In this document: positions 4,681-29,862 of the stretch, one piece after another
How the letters are laid out: every line of letters starts with the position of its first letter
Position numbering within the stretch: position 1 is the first letter of the stretch
DNA from: Candidatus Hadarchaeota archaeon
GTDB lineage: Archaea > Hadarchaeota > Hadarchaeia > Hadarchaeales > Hadarchaeaceae
Reading direction: 5' to 3'
DNA: 32,000 bases
Assembly: GCA_964514965.1 (NCBI GenBank)
Contig: CAZETV010000002.1
Location: 1-32,000 of the forward strand
The notes under the pieces: generated by a model
What the model was told of the DNA's origin: nothing
Database searches by the model: none
What the model saw: the letters and a program-made list of their open reading frames with translations, nothing else
Position numbers and translations under genes: made by a program

Positions 4681-5477
4681 CGCTTGAGTTCACGCATCGC
4701 CCGCTCGACCGAGACTCCTCCGTGTACGATCTGCACCAGCGCTCGAGTCATTCCAGTAGGGTTTCGGTGCTGGAAAATGTTGCGCCCTATCGAAACCCCT
4801 AGTGCTCCAGCTTTGACTGCTTCATTCGCCATCTCAAGCACATCCCGTTCGGTCACCATCTTCGGACCACCAGCAATCACCACTGGCACAGGGCAGCCCC
4901 GGACAACCTTTCGGAAAGAGTTGATGTCTCCAGTGTAAGATGTCTTAATTATGTCAGCCCCCAGCTCCGCTCCGACCCGTGCTGCATGCGCAACTAACTC
5001 GGGATCATGCTGATTCTTTATTTTTGGGCCGCGCGGGTACATCATCGCAAACAGAGGCATGCCCCAGTTCGCGCATGTCTCAGCAACATCCCCTAACGCC
5101 AGAAGCTGTTCCGGCTCGTTCGCCGCACCCACATTGACGTGAACCGAGACGGCGTCCGCGCCCAAGCTGATTGCCTCCTCAACTGTCGCTATTGGAACCT
5201 TACTGTTAGGGTCAGGCCCCAGCGAGGTGCTCCCCGAGAGGTGGATGATAAGCCCGACATCCTTTCCGTATCCTCGGTGCCCGGCGCGAACGATACCTTT
5301 GTGTAGCACAACGGCGTTTGCCCCGCCGTCAGCTACCTTGTTTATAATTGATGCCATGTTTTCGATACCTGCAATAGGCCCCATGCTCAAGCCATGATCC
5401 ATAGGTACAATCACTGTTCGCCTTGTTTTCCGGTCGATTATTCGCTCAAGCCTCACGCGTTTTCCAACTTCGGACAA
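4677..5477 (-). CDS. aroA': 2-amino-3,7-dideoxy-D-threo-hept-6-ulosonate (ADH) synthase, DhnA-type class I aldolase (MJ0400 family)
   Basis: 266-aa ORF. Matches [40 protein letters not shown] and [13 protein letters not shown] start at 5477 is preceded by a strong SD (AGGAGGT) 7 nt upstream. Confidence 0.88.
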
Positions 5478-5504
5478 TCACACTACCTCCTTATGTGATA
5501 TACT

Positions 5505-5526
5505 GCACACACATTAAAAAGTGTGC
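5505..5526. promoter_or_regulatory. Inverted repeat GCACAC-N10-GTGTGC bracketing an A/T-rich TATA-like element in the divergent aro promoter region
   Basis: Read directly: GCACAC (5505-5510), spacer acattaaaaa, GTGTGC (5521-5526). It lies ~35-40 nt upstream of the aroA' TTG start on the minus strand. Confidence 0.35.
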
Positions 5527-10088: not shown

Positions 10089-10499
10089 CTAAACGCTCCT
10101 CACAGACGCTCTGGCGCCGCACGCCTCGCACCGTAGAATGTAAATTCGTTCGTGCCGCTCGAGCTTAGTGTCAGGCTTTCCACACTCGCGACAGAACACG
10201 AACTCCTCGACATAACGTTGGATTCGCTCGTTCACCGCCGTATTCAAAAATTTTCCCTGAAAAACAACCTGAGTCCCCTCGATGTTGCCAGCTACCCCCA
10301 GCTCTCGGAGTAGATATTTTATGAGATGTTCAGGCTCGCGGTTGAGGGCGCTTGCGATGCTTCGAAAGTTCTGGAGGATTGTGCGGTTTCCAACAATCGC
10401 AACTTCTGCCTCGGGAATCTGGAAGCGAGAACTCTCGAACACCGCTTTAGGTACCTGCTCGAGAGCGCGGTCGAGCAGTTTTTCGTAATCTTCACTCAT
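10089..10499 (-). CDS. eif2b: Translation initiation factor aIF-2 beta subunit
   Basis: 136-aa ORF with a C-terminal zinc ribbon (CRECGKPDT...LRCEACGA) and a typical aIF-2 beta core. Confidence 0.9.
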   Translation of the reverse strand: MSEDYEKLLDRALEQVPKAVFESSRFQIPEAEVAIVGNRTILQNFRSIASALNREPEHLIKYLLRELGVAGNIEGTQVVFQGKFLNTAVNERIQRYVEEFVFCRECGKPDTKLERHERIYILRCEACGARASVRSV

Positions 10500-15804: not shown

Positions 15805-15898
15805 CGTCGCCTCTGTGTGTTGTAGTGTAATACTTGGATGGGACTTATTCAAAAGCTGGTTTGATGTTGCAACCTGTTTTACACGCTTATTTAACAAC

Positions 15899-15927
15899 TG
15901 GTGCGGGGGAGGGGATTCGCACCCCTG
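15899..15927 (-). repeat. Orphan copy of the 3' end of tRNA-Leu (C48 plus T-arm, acceptor 3' strand, A73 and CCA); direct repeat of 21000-21028 (candidate att site)
   Basis: tggtgcgggggaggggattcgcacccctg versus tggtgcgggagaggggattcgaacccccg gives 26/29 identical in the same orientation. No remaining tRNA structure follows it. Confidence 0.7.
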
Positions 15928-16121: not shown

Positions 16122-16154
16122 TTAAATAGTAGTTCAAATAATTTTGAAATACTA
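16122..16154 (+). promoter_or_regulatory. TATA-like box (TTAAATA, 16122-16128) plus a 28-bp imperfect palindrome (16127-16154) reaching the permease start codon; candidate ArsR operator
   Basis: TAGTAGTTCAAATA|ATTTTGAAATACTA has 11/14 half-site positions symmetric. The core is TTCAAA-taat-TTTGAA and the outer arms are TAGTA/TACTA. The ATG is at 16154. Confidence 0.45.
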
Positions 16155-17248
16155 TGTACGACATTATCGGATCCGGCTTGAACGCCCTGATGGAGTACCT
16201 CTCGGCGCACGTGCTCACCTGCCTAGTACCGGCTTTCTTCATCTCGGGGGCGATAGCAGTTCTGGTCAGCAAGGGAACCGTCATCAAATACTTCGGGGCG
16301 GGGACCAAGAAGTGGCTGTCCTACAGCGTCGCCTCTGTATCCGGGACAATCTTGGCCGTCTGCAGCTGTACCATCCTGCCCATGTTTCAAGGCATCTACA
16401 AAAGAGGGGCCGGCATTGGGCCGGCCACCGCCTTCCTGTTTTCAGGTCCGGCAATCAACGTGCTGGCGATAGTGTTCACCGCCGGCATACTGGGCTTCGA
16501 TCTGGGGATTGCCAGGGCCGTGGCCTCGATCTCCATGTCGGTGATAATCGGCTTGGTCATGGCCGCAGTTTTCGAGAGGGGCAAGAGGGCGGGGGCCGCG
16601 GCCGTTGCTCCGGCAGTCGCCCAGGTAGAGGCCACTGGGACGCGCCCCAGATATATCTCCCCAGCGTTCTTCGCCCTGCTGGTCACGATACTGCTAGTCG
16701 GCGCTTCTGGCCTGATCTCCCTAGAGTTCAGGCTGGCGGTCGTGTATTTGCTCACCATAGCGGTCGCCGTGATATTGATATTCTACTACTCTAGGGACGA
16801 GGTCAAAAGCTGGGGCCGCGAGACCTGGTGGGTGGTGAAAAGGATATTCCCGATCCTTCTGGTCGGAGTTTTTATAGTTGGGGCCATCGGGGGCGTCGCC
16901 GCTAATTTCTCGCCGTCGCACGACCCGTCGACCGCAGTGGGCGAGCTGACTAGGCCCTACCTCGGCAACAACTCACTCCTCGCCTGCCTGCTGGGGTCCG
17001 TCATCGGGGCGCTCCTCTATATGCCGACGCTGCTCGAGGTCCCGATAGTGGGGACGTTTTTCGGCTACAGCTCCAGGCTCATGGCCGCCGGGCCCGCCCT
17101 CGCCCTGCTGCTGGCCGGACCGGCCATAAGCCTGCCCAGCATGATCGTGATTGTGAGGATGATCGGGTGGAGAAAGGCCAGCGTTTACATTACGCTGGTG
17201 GTCACCGTCGCCACGGCGATGGGCATAATCTACGGTGGATTGGCATGA
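16154..17248 (+). CDS. Permease of the COG0701 / ArsP-like family with a vicinal CxC motif
   Basis: 364-aa polytopic ORF. ILAVCSCTILPMF (Cys-Ser-Cys within a TM helix) and GPATAFLFSGPAINV are typical of this family, which is commonly found next to thioredoxin-like and ArsR genes. Confidence 0.8.
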   Translation: MYDIIGSGLNALMEYLSAHVLTCLVPAFFISGAIAVLVSKGTVIKYFGAGTKKWLSYSVASVSGTILAVCSCTILPMFQGIYKRGAGIGPATAFLFSGPAINVLAIVFTAGILGFDLGIARAVASISMSVIIGLVMAAVFERGKRAGAAAVAPAVAQVEATGTRPRYISPAFFALLVTILLVGASGLISLEFRLAVVYLLTIAVAVILIFYYSRDEVKSWGRETWWVVKRIFPILLVGVFIVGAIGGVAANFSPSHDPSTAVGELTRPYLGNNSLLACLLGSVIGALLYMPTLLEVPIVGTFFGYSSRLMAAGPALALLLAGPAISLPSMIVIVRMIGWRKASVYITLVVTVATAMGIIYGGLA

Positions 17249-17315
17249 TCGCCTCAACGTTCGAACCTCCAACATACTGAGGTCTGCCCACGAAAAAACA
17301 TCCGAAGGGTCAAAC

Positions 17316-19736
17316 ATGGAACAGGGATTTGAGACGAACCTAGAAGACGGCTTGGACGCGCAGGAGGTCCAGAGGAGGCTGGCCAAGTACGGGTACAACG
17401 AGGTTCCCGAGAGGCGAGTGAGTTTTTGGGCGAGACTGGGCAAACGTTTCTGGGGCATGGTGCCGTGGATGTTAGAAGCCACCGCCATCGTCACAATAGT
17501 TCTGGGCAAGTACCCGCAGGCACTCGTTATCGTGTTCCTCCTCCTGTTCAATGCGGGAATGTCGCTGTGGCGTGAGGGTAGGGCAAAGACGGCGATGACC
17601 AAGCTGAAGCAGAGGCTGAGAATAGAAAGCCGGGTAAGAAGGGATAGAAAATGGTCCACCGTCCCGGCTAGGGAGCTGGTTCCAGGGGATGTCGTCAGGG
17701 CCAGGATCGGCGATCTCCTGCCGGCGGACGTAAAGATCGTTGACGGTTCCCTCGGCCTGGACCAATCGGTGCTCACCGGCGAATCCGGAATCGTGGACAA
17801 GCTACCCGCGGAGATAGCCTATTCGGGGTCAGCGATCAAGCGAGGCGAGGCCACAGGCGTGGTGGTTGCCACGGGAACAAAAACCTATTTTGGCAGAACC
17901 ATCTCCCTGCTTGAACTGGCAAAGCCAAAGCTCCACATGGAAGAGGTCACGGTTAAAATTGCTCGCCAGCTTGCGATGCTGGTTGTAGCTTCTCTCCTTG
18001 TCGTCTTTGTCTACGCAGCGCTGACGGGTTTTGAGTTCGCCGTCCTGCTGCCCCTCGCCAGTGTGTTGCTCATAGCCGCTGTGCCAGTCGCCATGCCCAC
18101 AATGTTCACCATAAACATGGCGCTCGGCTCGGCGGTACTGGCCAAGCATGGCATCCTTGTCACAAGGCTCAGCGCCTCCGAAGACGCAGCAACCATGGAT
18201 GTCATATGTGTAGACAAAACGGGCACGATAACCATGAACAAGCTCTTCGTGGAGGAAGAAACACCGCTGAACGGATTCAGCGAGGGCGACGTCGTGTTGT
18301 ATGGCGCACTTGCATCAAAAGAAGCCAATCAGGACCCAATCGACATGGCCTTCCTAACGGCCGCAAAACAAGCAAACCTGACCCTAGACGCTTACTCACA
18401 AGCAGATTTCGTTCCCTTCGACCCCAAAACCAGGATGACCGAAGCCACGATCAACAAAGCGAGCGAAAAATTCTTCGTGGGAAAAGGCTCGTTCGACATA
18501 ATATGCGCTGCCTGCAACGTTCCCGAGGATGAAGCCAAGACAATGCTCAAGTTCGCTGAGGAGCTTTCTGCAAGGGGATTGAGGGTAATCGCCGTTGCCA
18601 AGGGCGAGGATAGAGGCAAGCTGGAGTTTGTCGGCCTCGCGGGCATTGCCGATCGGATAAAGGAGGATTCGCGCGAGATACTCGACCAGATCCGGGGATT
18701 GGGCGTAGAGGTGAAGATGCTCACGGGCGATTCGATTCCGATCGCCAAAAACATCGCACACCAAGTGGGATTGGGCAATAATATCACCACTATGTCAGAG
18801 ATTCAGGAGGCTGAAACCGAAAACACGCCCGTTGACTCGGTGATTGAGGAGAGCCACGGCATCGCCCAGATTTATCCCGAGGACAAGTTCAGCATAGTTA
18901 AGGCTCTCCAGCGCATGGGACACGTGGTGGGAATGACTGGGGACGGCGTGAACGACGCCCCTGCTCTGGGGCAGGCGGAAGTCGGCATCGCGGTGAAGAA
19001 CGCGACGGATATCGCCAAAGATTCTGCTAGTGCCGTGCTCACGGTTGAGGGCCTCGGCGGAATAGTGGGCATGATCAAGACGTCGAGGACGATCTACCAG
19101 AGGATCTACAGCTGGGCGCTGATGATGGTCGCCCGAAAGCTGGATATCGCCGGCTACATCGTCATCATGCTGTTTCTCACCCACTCATTTCTGCTGTCAA
19201 TAACCAGTACGGTGTTGATGCTCTTCCTGGGCGACTTCGTTTCGATGGCCATATCGACAGACAATGTACGCTCCTCTCTCAAGCCTGACACCTTCGACAT
19301 GCGCCGCCTGTTTGGGGTCAGCGGATTACTGGGTTTACTGATGATTATCGAGGGCGTGATCTTCACCGTGCCCGCCCTATTGTACTTTGGGTTGATCGGC
19401 AACGTGGATAAAATCTACACCTTCGGGTTTGCTTATCTCAACTTGGCGGGCATATCCACGCTCATGATAGTTCGTGAGCGGAATCACTTCTGGAAGTCAA
19501 AGCCCAGTAGGTTCTTGAGCGTCATGGTTCTGGCCGAAGTCCTGTTCGTGATTGTCGTCTCCGTCTTTGGCGTTCTAGAGCTTGCGCCGCTCGGCTTCGC
19601 GCCCGTGCTCGCGATTCTCGGCTTCGCGCTGGCAACGACGTTCGTAATCAACGATCCGATTAAGGTATACTTAATACGCAAATTCAAGACTAGCGTAACC
19701 AGTCATCCAAAAGGTTTAAATAATAATTTCAAATAA
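17316..19736 (+). CDS. P-type ATPase, type IIIA-like (plasma-membrane H+-ATPase family)
   Basis: Has DKTGTITMN (phosphorylation site), TGES, MLTGD and MTGDGVNDAPAL. The TM4 motif is AAVPVAMPT (P3A-like) rather than the CPC of heavy-metal P1B pumps. I prefer the ATG at 17316, because the GTG at 17235 would overlap the permease gene. Confidence 0.85.
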   Translation: MEQGFETNLEDGLDAQEVQRRLAKYGYNEVPERRVSFWARLGKRFWGMVPWMLEATAIVTIVLGKYPQALVIVFLLLFNAGMSLWREGRAKTAMTKLKQRLRIESRVRRDRKWSTVPARELVPGDVVRARIGDLLPADVKIVDGSLGLDQSVLTGESGIVDKLPAEIAYSGSAIKRGEATGVVVATGTKTYFGRTISLLELAKPKLHMEEVTVKIARQLAMLVVASLLVVFVYAALTGFEFAVLLPLASVLLIAAVPVAMPTMFTINMALGSAVLAKHGILVTRLSASEDAATMDVICVDKTGTITMNKLFVEEETPLNGFSEGDVVLYGALASKEANQDPIDMAFLTAAKQANLTLDAYSQADFVPFDPKTRMTEATINKASEKFFVGKGSFDIICAACNVPEDEAKTMLKFAEELSARGLRVIAVAKGEDRGKLEFVGLAGIADRIKEDSREILDQIRGLGVEVKMLTGDSIPIAKNIAHQVGLGNNITTMSEIQEAETENTPVDSVIEESHGIAQIYPEDKFSIVKALQRMGHVVGMTGDGVNDAPALGQAEVGIAVKNATDIAKDSASAVLTVEGLGGIVGMIKTSRTIYQRIYSWALMMVARKLDIAGYIVIMLFLTHSFLLSITSTVLMLFLGDFVSMAISTDNVRSSLKPDTFDMRRLFGVSGLLGLLMIIEGVIFTVPALLYFGLIGNVDKIYTFGFAYLNLAGISTLMIVRERNHFWKSKPSRFLSVMVLAEVLFVIVVSVFGVLELAPLGFAPVLAILGFALATTFVINDPIKVYLIRKFKTSVTSHPKGLNNNFK

Positions 19737-19754
19737 AATTGAAATGGTGTTCAC

Positions 19755-20015
19755 TTGAAGATAAGGGTTTTCGGCACGGTACCGCCCTGCGTGAAGTGCA
19801 AGGCAGCCGAAGCGGCAGTGAAGGAAGCCGTGAAGGAGCTCGGCTACAGCGATATCGAGGTGTCCAAAGAGGACGCGCTGTCGGAGGAGGCCGGAAAACT
19901 GGGCATAATGATGACGCCGACGGTGATGATAGACAGCAAAGTTATCAAGGTCGGGGGCGTCCCATCCAAGGACGAAGTTAAGCGGGCCATAGAAGGAACC
20001 AGGAAAGGCGGTTGA
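19755..20015 (+). CDS. Thioredoxin-fold protein (redox-active disulfide protein 2 / Thioredoxin_3-like), CVKC active site
   Basis: 86 aa. MKIRVFGTVPPCVKCKAAE... with a cis-Pro loop (MTPTVMID). TTG start with GGTG 9 nt upstream. Confidence 0.75.
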   Translation: MKIRVFGTVPPCVKCKAAEAAVKEAVKELGYSDIEVSKEDALSEEAGKLGIMMTPTVMIDSKVIKVGGVPSKDEVKRAIEGTRKGG

Positions 20016-20270
20016 ATGGTAAGGCTGGAGGTCTTCACGGCCGAGCCGCCGTGTCCGGGCTGCTTGAAACTACTTGAACTTGCCGACAGGATGAAGGAAG
20101 AATACAGTGACAGGGTCGAGGTCGTGAAGCACATCGGACCCTGCGACGAGTTAGCGAAGTATGGCATAACGGTGGTTCCGGCGACGGTTATCGACGGCAG
20201 GATAAAGCTGATGGGTGTCTGCCCCAGCGAGAGAACGCTCAGGACAGCCCTGTGGGAGGCGGGAGCGTGA
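20016..20270 (+). CDS. Thioredoxin-fold protein, CPGC active site plus two extra Cys
   Basis: 84 aa. The ATG immediately follows the upstream TGA (TGAATG). Has PPCPGC, a cis-Pro loop (VVPATVIDG), and extra Cys in GPCDE and GVCPS. Confidence 0.7.
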   Translation: MVRLEVFTAEPPCPGCLKLLELADRMKEEYSDRVEVVKHIGPCDELAKYGITVVPATVIDGRIKLMGVCPSERTLRTALWEAGA

Positions 20271-20524
20271 AGCTGCTGGTCGAAGTGTTCGTTTCCTTGC
20301 CGCCGTGCTCCGGGGGTAGGATGGTTAAGAAGATGATGGTGGAGATCGTGGAAAAGTACGGGGACCGCGTCGAGATCAAGACATACGAGGGAGCCAACGA
20401 AAAGACCAAGGAATATGGCATCGAAACGACCCCCGCGATTGTCATCGACAAGGACATCAGGATCACCGGCGTCGCTCCGAGCATGGAGACCTTGGAGAAC
20501 GCCTTGAAGGAAGCCGGATTATAA
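20267..20524 (+). CDS. Thioredoxin-fold protein, degenerate CSGG site (monothiol paralogue)
   Basis: 85 aa from a GTG at 20267 that overlaps the upstream TGA (GTGA). A clear paralogue of the preceding gene (EVF..PPC.G...Y.DRVE...YGI...PA.VID...GV.PS..TL..AL.EAG). Confidence 0.65.
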   Translation: MKLLVEVFVSLPPCSGGRMVKKMMVEIVEKYGDRVEIKTYEGANEKTKEYGIETTPAIVIDKDIRITGVAPSMETLENALKEAGL

Positions 20525-20548: not shown

Positions 20549-20926
20549 GTGGTAGACTTGAAAAGGAGCGCAAAGGGGACAGGGCCCGTCAGACTTCGAG
20601 ACAAGATATCCGGGGCCTACGACATCTCGGAGGAATCTCTGAAACGTGCGGATAAAGAGATTCGCGCGGACACCAAGGAAGCAATAAAGTTTTTGGAAGC
20701 CTTGGACCACCCAACAAGGTTGCGCATCCTCAGGGCGCTGAGAACGGGGGAACTGTGTGTTTGCGTGTTTGTCGCGTTAATGAAGATTAAACACTCGAAG
20801 CTATCCTACCACCTAAAACTGTTGAAGAACGCGGGACTGGTTGATTCCAGGAAGGATGGATACTTCGTAGAATACAGGATCACCGATTTGGGAAGAAGAA
20901 TGTTGGAGAATATCGAGGGGCATTAA
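20549..20926 (+). CDS. arsR: ArsR/SmtB-family metalloregulator with ELCVC motif
   Basis: Winged-HTH core ALDHPTRLRILRAL..GELCVCVF......SKLSYHLKLLKNAGLV. GTG start at 20549, with an in-frame TTG at 20558 as the alternative. Confidence 0.85.
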   Translation: MVDLKRSAKGTGPVRLRDKISGAYDISEESLKRADKEIRADTKEAIKFLEALDHPTRLRILRALRTGELCVCVFVALMKIKHSKLSYHLKLLKNAGLVDSRKDGYFVEYRITDLGRRMLENIEGH

Positions 20927-20999
20927 AGTCTAACACTTCCCTTGACTGGGGACGCCTTCGGCTAGCTCTTTTGATTCCGCCTCTGACGTCATTAAAAAA

Positions 21000-21102
21000 T
21001 GGTGCGGGAGAGGGGATTCGAACCCCCGAACTCCTTCGAGGCCAGATCTTGAGTTTCGCCCTTTCGCGACTGGCGCCTTTGACCTGACTTGGCTACCCCC
21101 GC
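21000..21102 (-). tRNA. tRNA-Leu (anticodon CAA), class II, with a 15-nt insertion/intron (21055-21069) and genomically encoded CCA
   Basis: Hand-folded. Acceptor GCGGGGG/CTCCCGC, D-arm GCC-AAGTCAGGTCAAA-GGC. After removing TCGCGAAAGGGCGAA the anticodon arm is CCAGA-CTCAAGA-TCTGG. Long variable arm CCTCGAAGGAGTTC, T-arm GGGGG-TTCGAAT-CCCCT, then A73 and CCA. Confidence 0.8.
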
Positions 21103-29031: not shown

Positions 29032-29862
29032 ATGAATAATGAAAAAATAAAGAAACCCGTAAGGGAATACTACGCTAAAGTAGCGAAACAGAGCTGCTCA
29101 TGCTACATCCCTGTAAAATCGCAGTGCGGTGTGTGTGGCTCAACACAGGATATGATGGGGTACACCGATGAAGAACTTAAAGGAGTCCCTGAAGGTTCAA
29201 TTTTGGAACTTGGTATTGGAAACCCTGTTGCCCCCGCGTCTTTAAGAAAAGAGGAGATAGTCCTTGACCTTGGTTCAGGCGCAGGACGTGATTGTTTTAT
29301 CGCCGCCAACAAAGTTGGTAAGAGTGGAAGAGTTATCGGCGTAGATATGACACCAGAGATGATCGACAGAGCAAGAAAAAACGCGGAGAAGAGTAACTAC
29401 AAAAATGTTGAGTTCAGGCTCGGAGAAATCGAAAACCTACCGGTTGCCGACAATTCCGTTGACGTAGTCATCTCAAATTGCGTTATCAACCTTGTGCCTG
29501 ACAAAAGAAGGGTCTTAAGGGAGATGTTCAGAGTGATGAAGCCTGGAGGAAGGTTCGTAATCTCAGATGTAATTCTGCTGAAGGAACTTCCCGATTTCGT
29601 GAAGAACTCTGTTGAGGCATATGCTAGTTGTCTTGCGGGAGCGGTCATGAAGAACGAATTTATGGAAGCGATAAATGCAGCGGGCTTTCAGGACGTTAAA
29701 GTGATCGACGAGGTATCATCCCTTACGGAGAGTGTGCTCGACCATCCAACCGCAAAGACAATCATCACAAATTCCAAAATACCACTTAAAAAAGTAAAAG
29801 ATATGGTAATCTCTGCTGGAAGAATAAGAGTTTACGGTGTTAAACCAAACGACAAAATTTAA
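29032..29862 (+). CDS. arsM: Arsenite S-adenosylmethionine methyltransferase
   Basis: SAM motif VLDLGSGAGRDCF, DVVISNCVINL and YASCLAGA (the two conserved catalytic Cys contexts), and an N-terminal Cys cluster CSC...CGVC. Confidence 0.8.
   Translation: MNNEKIKKPVREYYAKVAKQSCSCYIPVKSQCGVCGSTQDMMGYTDEELKGVPEGSILELGIGNPVAPASLRKEEIVLDLGSGAGRDCFIAANKVGKSGRVIGVDMTPEMIDRARKNAEKSNYKNVEFRLGEIENLPVADNSVDVVISNCVINLVPDKRRVLREMFRVMKPGGRFVISDVILLKELPDFVKNSVEAYASCLAGAVMKNEFMEAINAAGFQDVKVIDEVSSLTESVLDHPTAKTIITNSKIPLKKVKDMVISAGRIRVYGVKPNDKI

Follow-up and report, generated by a model that had tools for sequence, protein, structure and literature searches.

The first 32,000 nucleotides of contig CAZETV010000002.1 from a Candidatus Hadarchaeota archaeon (assembly GCA_964514965.1), hereafter the window, encode three consecutive thioredoxin-like proteins of about 85 residues, named here Trx1, Trx2 and Trx3, in a cassette with an ArsP_1-family permease and an ArsR/SmtB-family regulator. 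The cassette is an extended version of the known but little-studied ArsR–ArsP–thioredoxin module. On balance, the three are probably accessory thiol proteins of an efflux system of the ArsP_1 type under ArsR control; its substrate would be a metalloid that binds thiols, most likely trivalent arsenic in inorganic or methylated form. The trio might act as chaperones or as reductants.

All three genes lie on the forward strand. The first (19755–20015) starts with TTG and encodes an 86-residue mini-thioredoxin of the MTH895/ArsE type, with a Cx[KR]C active site (CVKC); the protein reads MKIRVFGTVPPCVKCK... and contains the cis-proline loop MTPTV. The second (20016–20270) starts with ATG, and its 84-residue product combines a C[AP]GC active site with two further cysteines, Cys43 and Cys69, as seen in its motifs PPCPGC, GPC (Cys43), VVPAT and GVCPS (Cys69). 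The third (20267–20524) starts with GTG and encodes an 85-residue monothiol CSGGR form, with the motifs PPCSGGR, TTPAI and GVAPS. The TGA stop codon of the first gene (20013–20015) abuts the ATG of the second (20016–20018) in the junction TGAATG, and the GTG of the third (20267–20269) overlaps the TGA of the second (20268–20270) within GTGA (20267–20270). On rereading of the sequence, the coordinates, junctions and active-site motifs of the three open reading frames were exactly those given in an earlier note on this DNA.

The TTG and GTG start codons are supported by orthologues that begin with ATG at equivalent positions; in the genome of a relative (G023), the Trx1 gene has an ATG at the same position and the Trx3 gene begins with an ATG within an ATGA overlap. 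Candidate Shine–Dalgarno sequences precede the start of the first gene (GGTG) and that of the third (GGAGG). The public gene call for Trx1 is a 74-residue protein that begins at an internal GTG (19791) and thereby loses strand 1 and Cys12, the first active-site cysteine; as the orthologues show, the 86-residue form starting at TTG is the correct one.

The three proteins match the Pfam family PF13192 (Thioredoxin_3) with 60.8 (Trx1), 42.6 (Trx2) and 37.8 (Trx3) bits, all above its gathering cutoff of 24.8. None of them reaches the cutoffs of TIGR00412, the MTH895/ArsE family (62 bits; Trx1 56.4, Trx2 34.3, Trx3 31.3), or of TIGR00411, the MJ0307 family (92.75 bits; 40.7, 42.7 and 35.1, respectively). 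By sequence, the closest solved structures for the trio are those of MTH895, MTH807 and MJ0307, and Trx1 aligns with PDB entries 1ILO and 1NHO. Structure models were made for Trx2 and Trx3 with AlphaFold2 (AF2) from family alignments, and reached mean confidence scores (predicted local distance difference test; pLDDT) of 93.3 and 94.5, respectively; both display the element order E-H-E-H-E-E-H of the minimal thioredoxin topology, and their top Foldseek matches are thioredoxins, with template-modelling (TM) scores of 0.75–0.81. The thioredoxin fold proposed in the earlier note is thus borne out by the models and Foldseek for the second and third proteins, and by PF13192 and the sequence match to solved mini-thioredoxins (1ILO and 1NHO) for the first. 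A reading of the C-x-x-x-R sequence of Trx3 as an ArsC-like motif, comparable to the CGTSR of plasmid R773 ArsC, was dropped, as a basic residue at position i+4 is normal in thioredoxins and is also present in Trx1; a Foldseek search with the Trx3 model returned thioredoxins and not ArsC or Spx proteins.

Each protein belongs to a subfamily with its own cysteine pattern. Cx[KR]C is found in all 52 Trx1 sequences, and C[AP]GC in 67 of 68 Trx2 sequences. In Trx2, Cys13, Cys16 and Cys69 are invariant (70/70) and Cys43 is nearly so (67/70); in a mapping by sequence alignment, Cys69 falls at the position of Gly92 in E. coli thioredoxin, which would place it in the substrate groove beside the active site. 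Trx3 retains CSGGR in 71 of 73 sequences and Cys14 in all 75, none of which has a second active-site cysteine. Among the proteins of the window a CxxC pair is therefore present in Trx1 (CVKC) and Trx2 (CPGC) and absent from Trx3 (CSGG). A further cysteine of the Trx3 family, Cys70 in a GVCPS loop, occurs in 60 of the 75 sequences and is replaced by alanine in the clade that includes the Trx3 of the window.

Purifying selection acts on all three genes: between orthologues, the proportion of nonsynonymous differences (pN) is 0.09–0.30, against a saturated proportion of synonymous differences (pS) of 0.7–1.0. Because pN is low while pS is saturated, the third gene is no decaying copy, and its conserved CSGGR motif likewise speaks against the decaying pseudogene that would have refuted the earlier note. 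It is hardly credible that Trx3 is decaying or untranslated and that the trio amounts to ordinary housekeeping thioredoxin redundancy: an intact Trx3 with CSGGR extends across several phyla, pN lies well below pS, and the distribution of the trio is patchy and island-like rather than that of a core function. What speaks for decay is the Trx3 gene of Methanothermobacter (5258–5521 of locus L031, and L032), in which two frameshifts, each at a poly-A run (A8 and A7), divide the coding sequence among three frames. Two independent assemblies show the same two frameshifts, and the gene is a pseudogene or else depends on its homopolymers. A coupling between loss of Cys43 from Trx2 and decay of Trx3, both of which are seen in Methanothermobacter, was considered and rejected, as two loci (L056 and L089) lack Cys43 and have an intact Trx3.

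The second gene product is 42% identical to the third, and the first is 27% identical to it. In a maximum-likelihood tree, the Trx2 clade (support 100/80) is sister to the Trx3 clade (97/92) with a joint support of 99/89, to the exclusion of MTH807 and of the CPYC redoxin of the host genome, and Trx1 groups with MTH895 (96/95). The alignment has 85 columns and, since it is so short, only the deep, well supported splits are reliable. A profile search of 1.84 billion representative sequences pointed to a small family, with 192 matches at E <= 0.001, of which 40 reached E <= 1e-10. More distant monothiol relatives are found in bacteria, with CSGGV in an Anaerolineae metagenome-assembled genome (MAG) and CTGM in Desulfofundulus; in a pattern-based scan the close Trx3 family looks archaeal, and the wider clade is not confined to archaea.

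The trio recurs far beyond the window. A scan of GTDB species representatives yielded 67 further loci, giving 68 in all with a CSGG-type Trx3; these loci were annotated with hidden Markov models built from the alignments of this analysis, not with curated models, and partner genes were sought within 6 kb. The loci belong to Hadarchaeota, Bathyarchaeia, Methanomethylicia, Nezhaarchaeota, anaerobic methanotrophic archaea (ANME) and Methanoperedens. A Trx2-type gene lies directly upstream of Trx3 in 64 of them, mostly with a gap of -7 to +5 nucleotides; three of the other four are at a contig edge, and one (L041) is unexplained. A Trx1-type gene is present near Trx3 in 51 loci, an ArsP_1 permease in 46 and an ArsR regulator in 55, and all four partners occur together in 42.

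Two layouts dominate. In Methanomethylicia and Methanoperedenaceae the genes are arranged as ArsR>ArsP1>Trx1>Trx2>Trx3, an order that is kept in Hadarchaeota except that ArsR comes last; in Bathyarchaeia the layout is <ArsP1<Trx1 | ArsR>Trx2>Trx3. These arrangements imply that Trx1 belongs with the permease and Trx2–Trx3 with the regulator. Trx2 and Trx3 are obligate partners whose genes abut closely and accompany ArsR, and Trx1 accompanies the permease; in the genomes with the pair only, ArsP_1 is encoded elsewhere in all five, with Trx1 beside it in three. None of the papers found describes a counterpart of the Trx2–Trx3 pair. A natural metagenomic fusion family of 245 residues (P0151) joins a Trx1-type domain with an insertion to a Trx2-type domain, which supports a joint function of the two types. 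A fourth tandem gene, encoding a Trx1-type protein of 134 residues with an insertion of about 40–50 residues, follows Trx3 in a Methanoperedenaceae locus (L033, 5524–5928).

The cassette is old, conserved and mobile, and moves between lineages as a unit. True orthologues of the third gene were found in only three of 40 relatives of the same order, each of which also has the partner genes. The window's trio clusters with the corresponding genes from Methanophagales, Alkanophaga, Methanoperedens and a different Hadarchaeum genus; in a genome of the same genus (G006, locus L025), all three thioredoxin genes cluster with the Bathyarchaeia/Nezhaarchaeota versions, which indicates a separate acquisition. 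The survey of homologous loci suggested in the earlier note has thus shown that the trio and its CSGG variant recur. The paralogy of the second and third genes that it had claimed is confirmed by their position as sister clades. Its description of diverging active sites holds for the motifs but not for a recent local divergence, as each motif marks an old conserved subfamily; nor is a triplication within this operon borne out, the three types being old and travelling together across archaeal phyla.

The partners of the trio point to a thiophilic substrate. The permease (16154–17248, forward strand) matches PF03773 with 217.2 bits and contains the motif LAVCSCT, the CSC of which is present in all 23 cassette permeases examined; the predicted PF03773 fold together with a vicinal cysteine pair in a CSC-type motif is what would be expected of an ArsP methylarsenite efflux permease of the Campylobacter type. 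The regulator (20549–20926, forward strand; start codon uncertain) scores 79.9 bits against NF033788, with a cutoff of 55, and contains ELCVC. An HTH_5 domain with CVC in the first helix of the helix–turn–helix (HTH) corresponds to a putative alpha-3 thiolate site of the ArsR/SmtB type, and the two cysteines of CVC are present in 57 of 59 and 59 of 59 cassette regulators, respectively.

An 18-nucleotide palindrome, TTCAAATAAnnTTGAAAT (TTCAAA-n4-TTTGAA), occurs twice in the window against 0.01 matches expected by chance. One copy, TTCAAATAATTTTGAAAT (16133–16150), lies just upstream of the permease start, and the other, TTCAAATAAAATTGAAAT (19728–19745), 10 nucleotides upstream of the Trx1 start. 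Seven other loci (L036, L037, L039, L041, L042, L044 and L108) carry TTCAAAnnnnTTTGAA at the equivalent site ahead of their ArsP_1 gene, and the copy upstream of Trx1 was seen in this window only. Its twofold occurrence and its conservation upstream of the permease make the palindrome a good candidate for the ArsR operator. Judging from the second copy, the trio and arsR may have a regulated promoter of their own.

An arsenite methyltransferase gene, arsM (29032–29862, forward strand; 315 bits against a cutoff of 263 for NF008823), lies 8.5 kb downstream of the cassette, and an Acr3 gene is present elsewhere in the host genome. ArsM also adjoins the cassette in locus L030, and Acr3 and a second ArsR adjoin that of G023. 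The recognizable resistance genes beside the surveyed cassettes are arsenic-related, namely ArsM (five of the 68 loci), Acr3 (five), ArsC-like low-molecular-weight (LMW) phosphatases (four) and an ArsA-like gene. A bacterial parallel comes from Pseudodesulfovibrio mercurii ND132, in which arsenic induces an ArsR5–ArsP–ArsE(PF13192)–DGC operon (bioRxiv 10.1101/2022.10.17.512643). Given the thiolate site of the regulator, the CSC motif of the exporter, the ArsM and Acr3 neighbours and this induced operon, the substrate is probably a thiophilic metalloid, most likely arsenic; the metalloid link suggested in the earlier note is in this way supported by the CVC and CSC motifs and by the recurrence of ArsM and Acr3 nearby.

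A substrate other than arsenic, be it a soft metal (Cd, Zn, Cu, Hg or Pb) or reactive sulfur (persulfide), for which the thioredoxins would be chaperones or buffers, is unlikely. The curated models nearest to the permease are those of the SO_0444 Cu/Zn exporter and SaoE, and the regulator is weakly similar to the BigR and CmtR models, although the scores of all four lie far below their cutoffs. Most of the loci have no arsenic genes nearby, and in one of them (L028) a ZnuABC–NikR set adjoins the Trx2–Trx3 pair; against this, the recognizable resistance genes that recur beside the cassette are those of arsenic.

The window holds one more gene between the permease and Trx1, a P-type ATPase (17235–19736, forward strand) of the plasma-membrane H+-efflux type (IIIA/P3A), which scores 677.6 bits against a cutoff of 615.5 for TIGR01647. 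Its open reading frame overlaps the permease stop by 14 nucleotides and is a locus-specific insertion, an ATPase of this type being found in only one of the 68 surveyed loci. As an H+ pump confined to this locus it is no conserved partner of the trio, and the role of As(III) recipient that the earlier note had considered for it is implausible. In related Hadarchaeum loci this insertion point is occupied by a pair of DUF169 genes and a gene for a B12-binding radical SAM protein; DUF169 (PF02596) genes occur within 6 kb in 14 of the 68 loci, from Hadarchaeota, Methanomethylicia and Bathyarchaeia, as at 10270–11936 of L026.

A pure thiol–disulfide reductase relay that binds no metal is a possible but less probable explanation. 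Electrons would flow from TrxR to Trx1 and/or Trx2 and serve either to maintain reduced cysteines in the permease, ArsR or ArsM or to reduce pentavalent or thiolated arsenicals, and Trx3 would be a partner resembling a monothiol glutaredoxin, with an ancestral resolving cysteine in GVCPS. Such a relay would be compatible with the canonical CxxC dithiols of Trx1 and Trx2, with a TrxR above the model cutoff in the host genome (C1:379272–380147) and with the presence of both Cys14 and Cys70 in the ancestral Trx3, of which Cys70, by way of an alignment with E. coli thioredoxin, presumably coincides with the semi-conserved cysteine in the GGC(D) motif of glutaredoxins. Genes for redox-active disulfide protein 2 occur in ars operons, and a redox role for such proteins was proposed by Castillo and Saier (PMC2963123). 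On the other hand, the single-cysteine Trx3 of this lineage cannot complete a reduction alone, the invariant Cys69 of Trx2 (70/70) is superfluous for a plain dithiol reductase, and a redoxin/TrxR pair is already encoded elsewhere in the genome. There, outside the window (C2:55896–57005), a CPYC glutaredoxin-like gene adjoins a TrxR-like gene (298 bits, below the cutoff of 343); the two are probably a housekeeping pair, and the existence of such a separate pair suggests that the trio is specialized.

In the favoured scheme, in which the trio serves a metalloid efflux system, the metalloid would release ArsR from the TTCAAA-n4-TTTGAA operators, so that the proteins would be produced at a constant ratio. 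Trx3, through its single nucleophilic Cys14, would capture either the substrate or the thiol of a protein in an S–As or mixed-disulfide adduct, which the cysteine cluster of Trx2 would take over or resolve. The dithiol of Trx1 would serve the permease at its CSC site, which it would maintain in the reduced state or supply with substrate. These anaerobic archaea are not known to contain glutathione; if they lack it, the set may replace glutathione-based handling. A more specific version, which is doubtful, has Trx2 and Trx3 form a heterodimeric metalloid carrier, a functional analogue of ArsD, in which a composite thiolate site (Cys13, Cys16, Cys69 and usually Cys43 of Trx2 with Cys14 of Trx3) would capture As(III) or methylarsenite in glutathione-free anaerobes and pass it via Trx1 to the CSC site of the ArsP-type permease. 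Together with Trx1 and the exporter, such a carrier would form an entire bucket brigade for arsenic in which every thiol belongs to a protein.

Several observations weigh against the favoured scheme. The Trx2 and Trx3 families are known from sequences and models alone, and their pairing rests on gene order only. Five distant relatives of the Trx2/Trx3 clade (P0159, P0169, P0172, P0175 and P0180) lack both active-site cysteines, and four of the five retain the cysteine of GxCPS, the exception being P0169 with GVVPS; the cysteine in this loop may therefore matter more than the CxxC site, and the role assigned to Cys14 may not be the conserved one. In ArsR/SmtB proteins, Cd, Pb or Zn can likewise be the metal sensed by a CVC site, and the permease matches no curated transporter model above its cutoff; with 80 bits for SaoE and 70 for the SO_0444 Cu/Zn exporter, it is equally far from both. 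A canonical arsenic gene lies within 6 kb in only about one fifth of the loci and, among 41 related genomes, ArsM (6/41) and Trx3 (4/41) showed no clear genome-level co-occurrence, with both present in two.

In the host genome, a 1.28 Mb MAG that is 94.5% complete, a 35-nucleotide direct repeat, with a left copy (15891–15925) that is 89% identical to the right copy (20992–21026), brackets the whole permease–ATPase–Trx–ArsR unit. The right copy overlaps the 3' end of a tRNA gene on the reverse strand (21003–21102; Rfam RF00005, 41.5 bits with a gathering threshold of 29), which the left copy matches. ARAGORN found no tRNA in the window, and the Rfam match includes a stretch of 37 nucleotides where the model has 13. 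This arrangement is consistent with the trace expected of a site-specifically integrated island, here one without an integrase.

Of the modules controlled by ArsR, those in which an ArsP-family permease has a small thioredoxin-like neighbour rank with the commonest and also with the least understood. The extended version described here, strictly ordered and with two mini-thioredoxins, one rich in cysteine and one monothiol, as an obligate pair, occurs in many uncultured archaea, including Bathyarchaeia, Hadarchaeota, Methanomethylicia and alkane- and methane-oxidizing lineages. If the trio binds or relays arsenicals, it would explain how thiol-reactive metalloids are safely delivered to an exporter in glutathione-free anaerobes, and its genes would be additional markers by which arsenic cycling could be traced in metagenomes from the subsurface and from hot springs. 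Moreover, Trx3 is in effect a natural 'trapping mutant' of a thioredoxin, which makes its partners experimentally accessible.

Among known proteins, the trio resembles in size and in its minimal beta-alpha-beta-alpha-beta-beta-alpha fold the archaeal mini-thioredoxins of about 80 residues MTH895 (PDB entry 1ILO), MTH807 (1NHO) and MJ0307 (1FO5). These are single dithiol redoxins, whereas Trx2 has two extra conserved cysteines and Trx3 lacks the second active-site cysteine. In the latter respect Trx3 recalls the monothiol glutaredoxins (CGFS type, for example yeast Grx5), in which a second cysteine after the last strand can resolve the adduct of the single active-site cysteine; the ancestral Trx3 also had a second cysteine after the last strand. 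Unlike these proteins, Trx3 has neither CGFS nor a glutaredoxin family match, and a glutathione-binding context is probably absent from these archaea.

ArsD has a thioredoxin-type fold in which three cysteines are clustered close to the CxxC position, and it binds As(III) and passes it to a pump. Trx2 is similar in having three invariant cysteines, two of them at the CxxC position, but no match to PF06953 at E <= 0.01 was found in any of the three genes. ArsD delivers to the ArsA ATPase, whereas the cassette in the window has no ArsA and its ATPase is of the H+-pump type.

The Sao and Tso systems described by Haft are a further parallel, in which the thioredoxin-like (seleno)proteins of SaoT/SaoE and TsoX/TsoC adjoin an ArsP-family CSC exporter and have been proposed to contact heavy metals (bioRxiv 10.1101/2022.07.06.499078). 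As with SaoT and TsoX, small thioredoxin-like proteins with non-canonical Cys/Sec motifs are here encoded beside such an exporter, and relatives of Trx3 carry precomputed TsoX (PF26315) matches. The scores are nevertheless far below the cutoffs (TsoX 24.5 against 52, SaoT 20.5 against 65 and SaoE 80 against 325 bits), the cassette contains no selenocysteine and the operon content differs.

The closest relatives are the ArsR–ArsP–ArsE modules, with or without DGC or ArsF. The ArsEFG system of Shewanella putrefaciens 200 was reportedly described by Chen, Zhang and Rosen in 2019; in a mechanism of this type, the thioredoxin-like ArsE and the nitroreductase ArsF would act together on aromatic arsenicals, whose nitro group would be reduced ahead of export. 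In favour of this reading, Trx1 is a member of the broad MTH895/ArsE group and, in one relative (G038), a DGC-domain protein follows Trx3. The nitroreduction model does not fit the window, because neither ArsF (NF040494) nor a DGC-domain gene (PF08859) was matched in the 94.5% complete host genome; DGC-like genes are found in at most three of the 68 loci, and synthetic nitro-aromatic arsenicals would be an implausible selective agent for uncultured archaea that probably live in the subsurface or in hot springs. It is accordingly a very improbable explanation for the trio. Relative to the ArsE family itself, Trx1 falls just below the TIGR00412 cutoff (56.4 against 62 bits). Like the ArsR–ArsP–ArsE modules, the cassette unites a repressor of the ArsR family, a permease of PF03773 that has vicinal cysteines and a small thioredoxin-like protein of PF13192; it differs from them in that ArsF and DGC were not found in the host genome and in that it contains three thioredoxin-like genes of distinct types.

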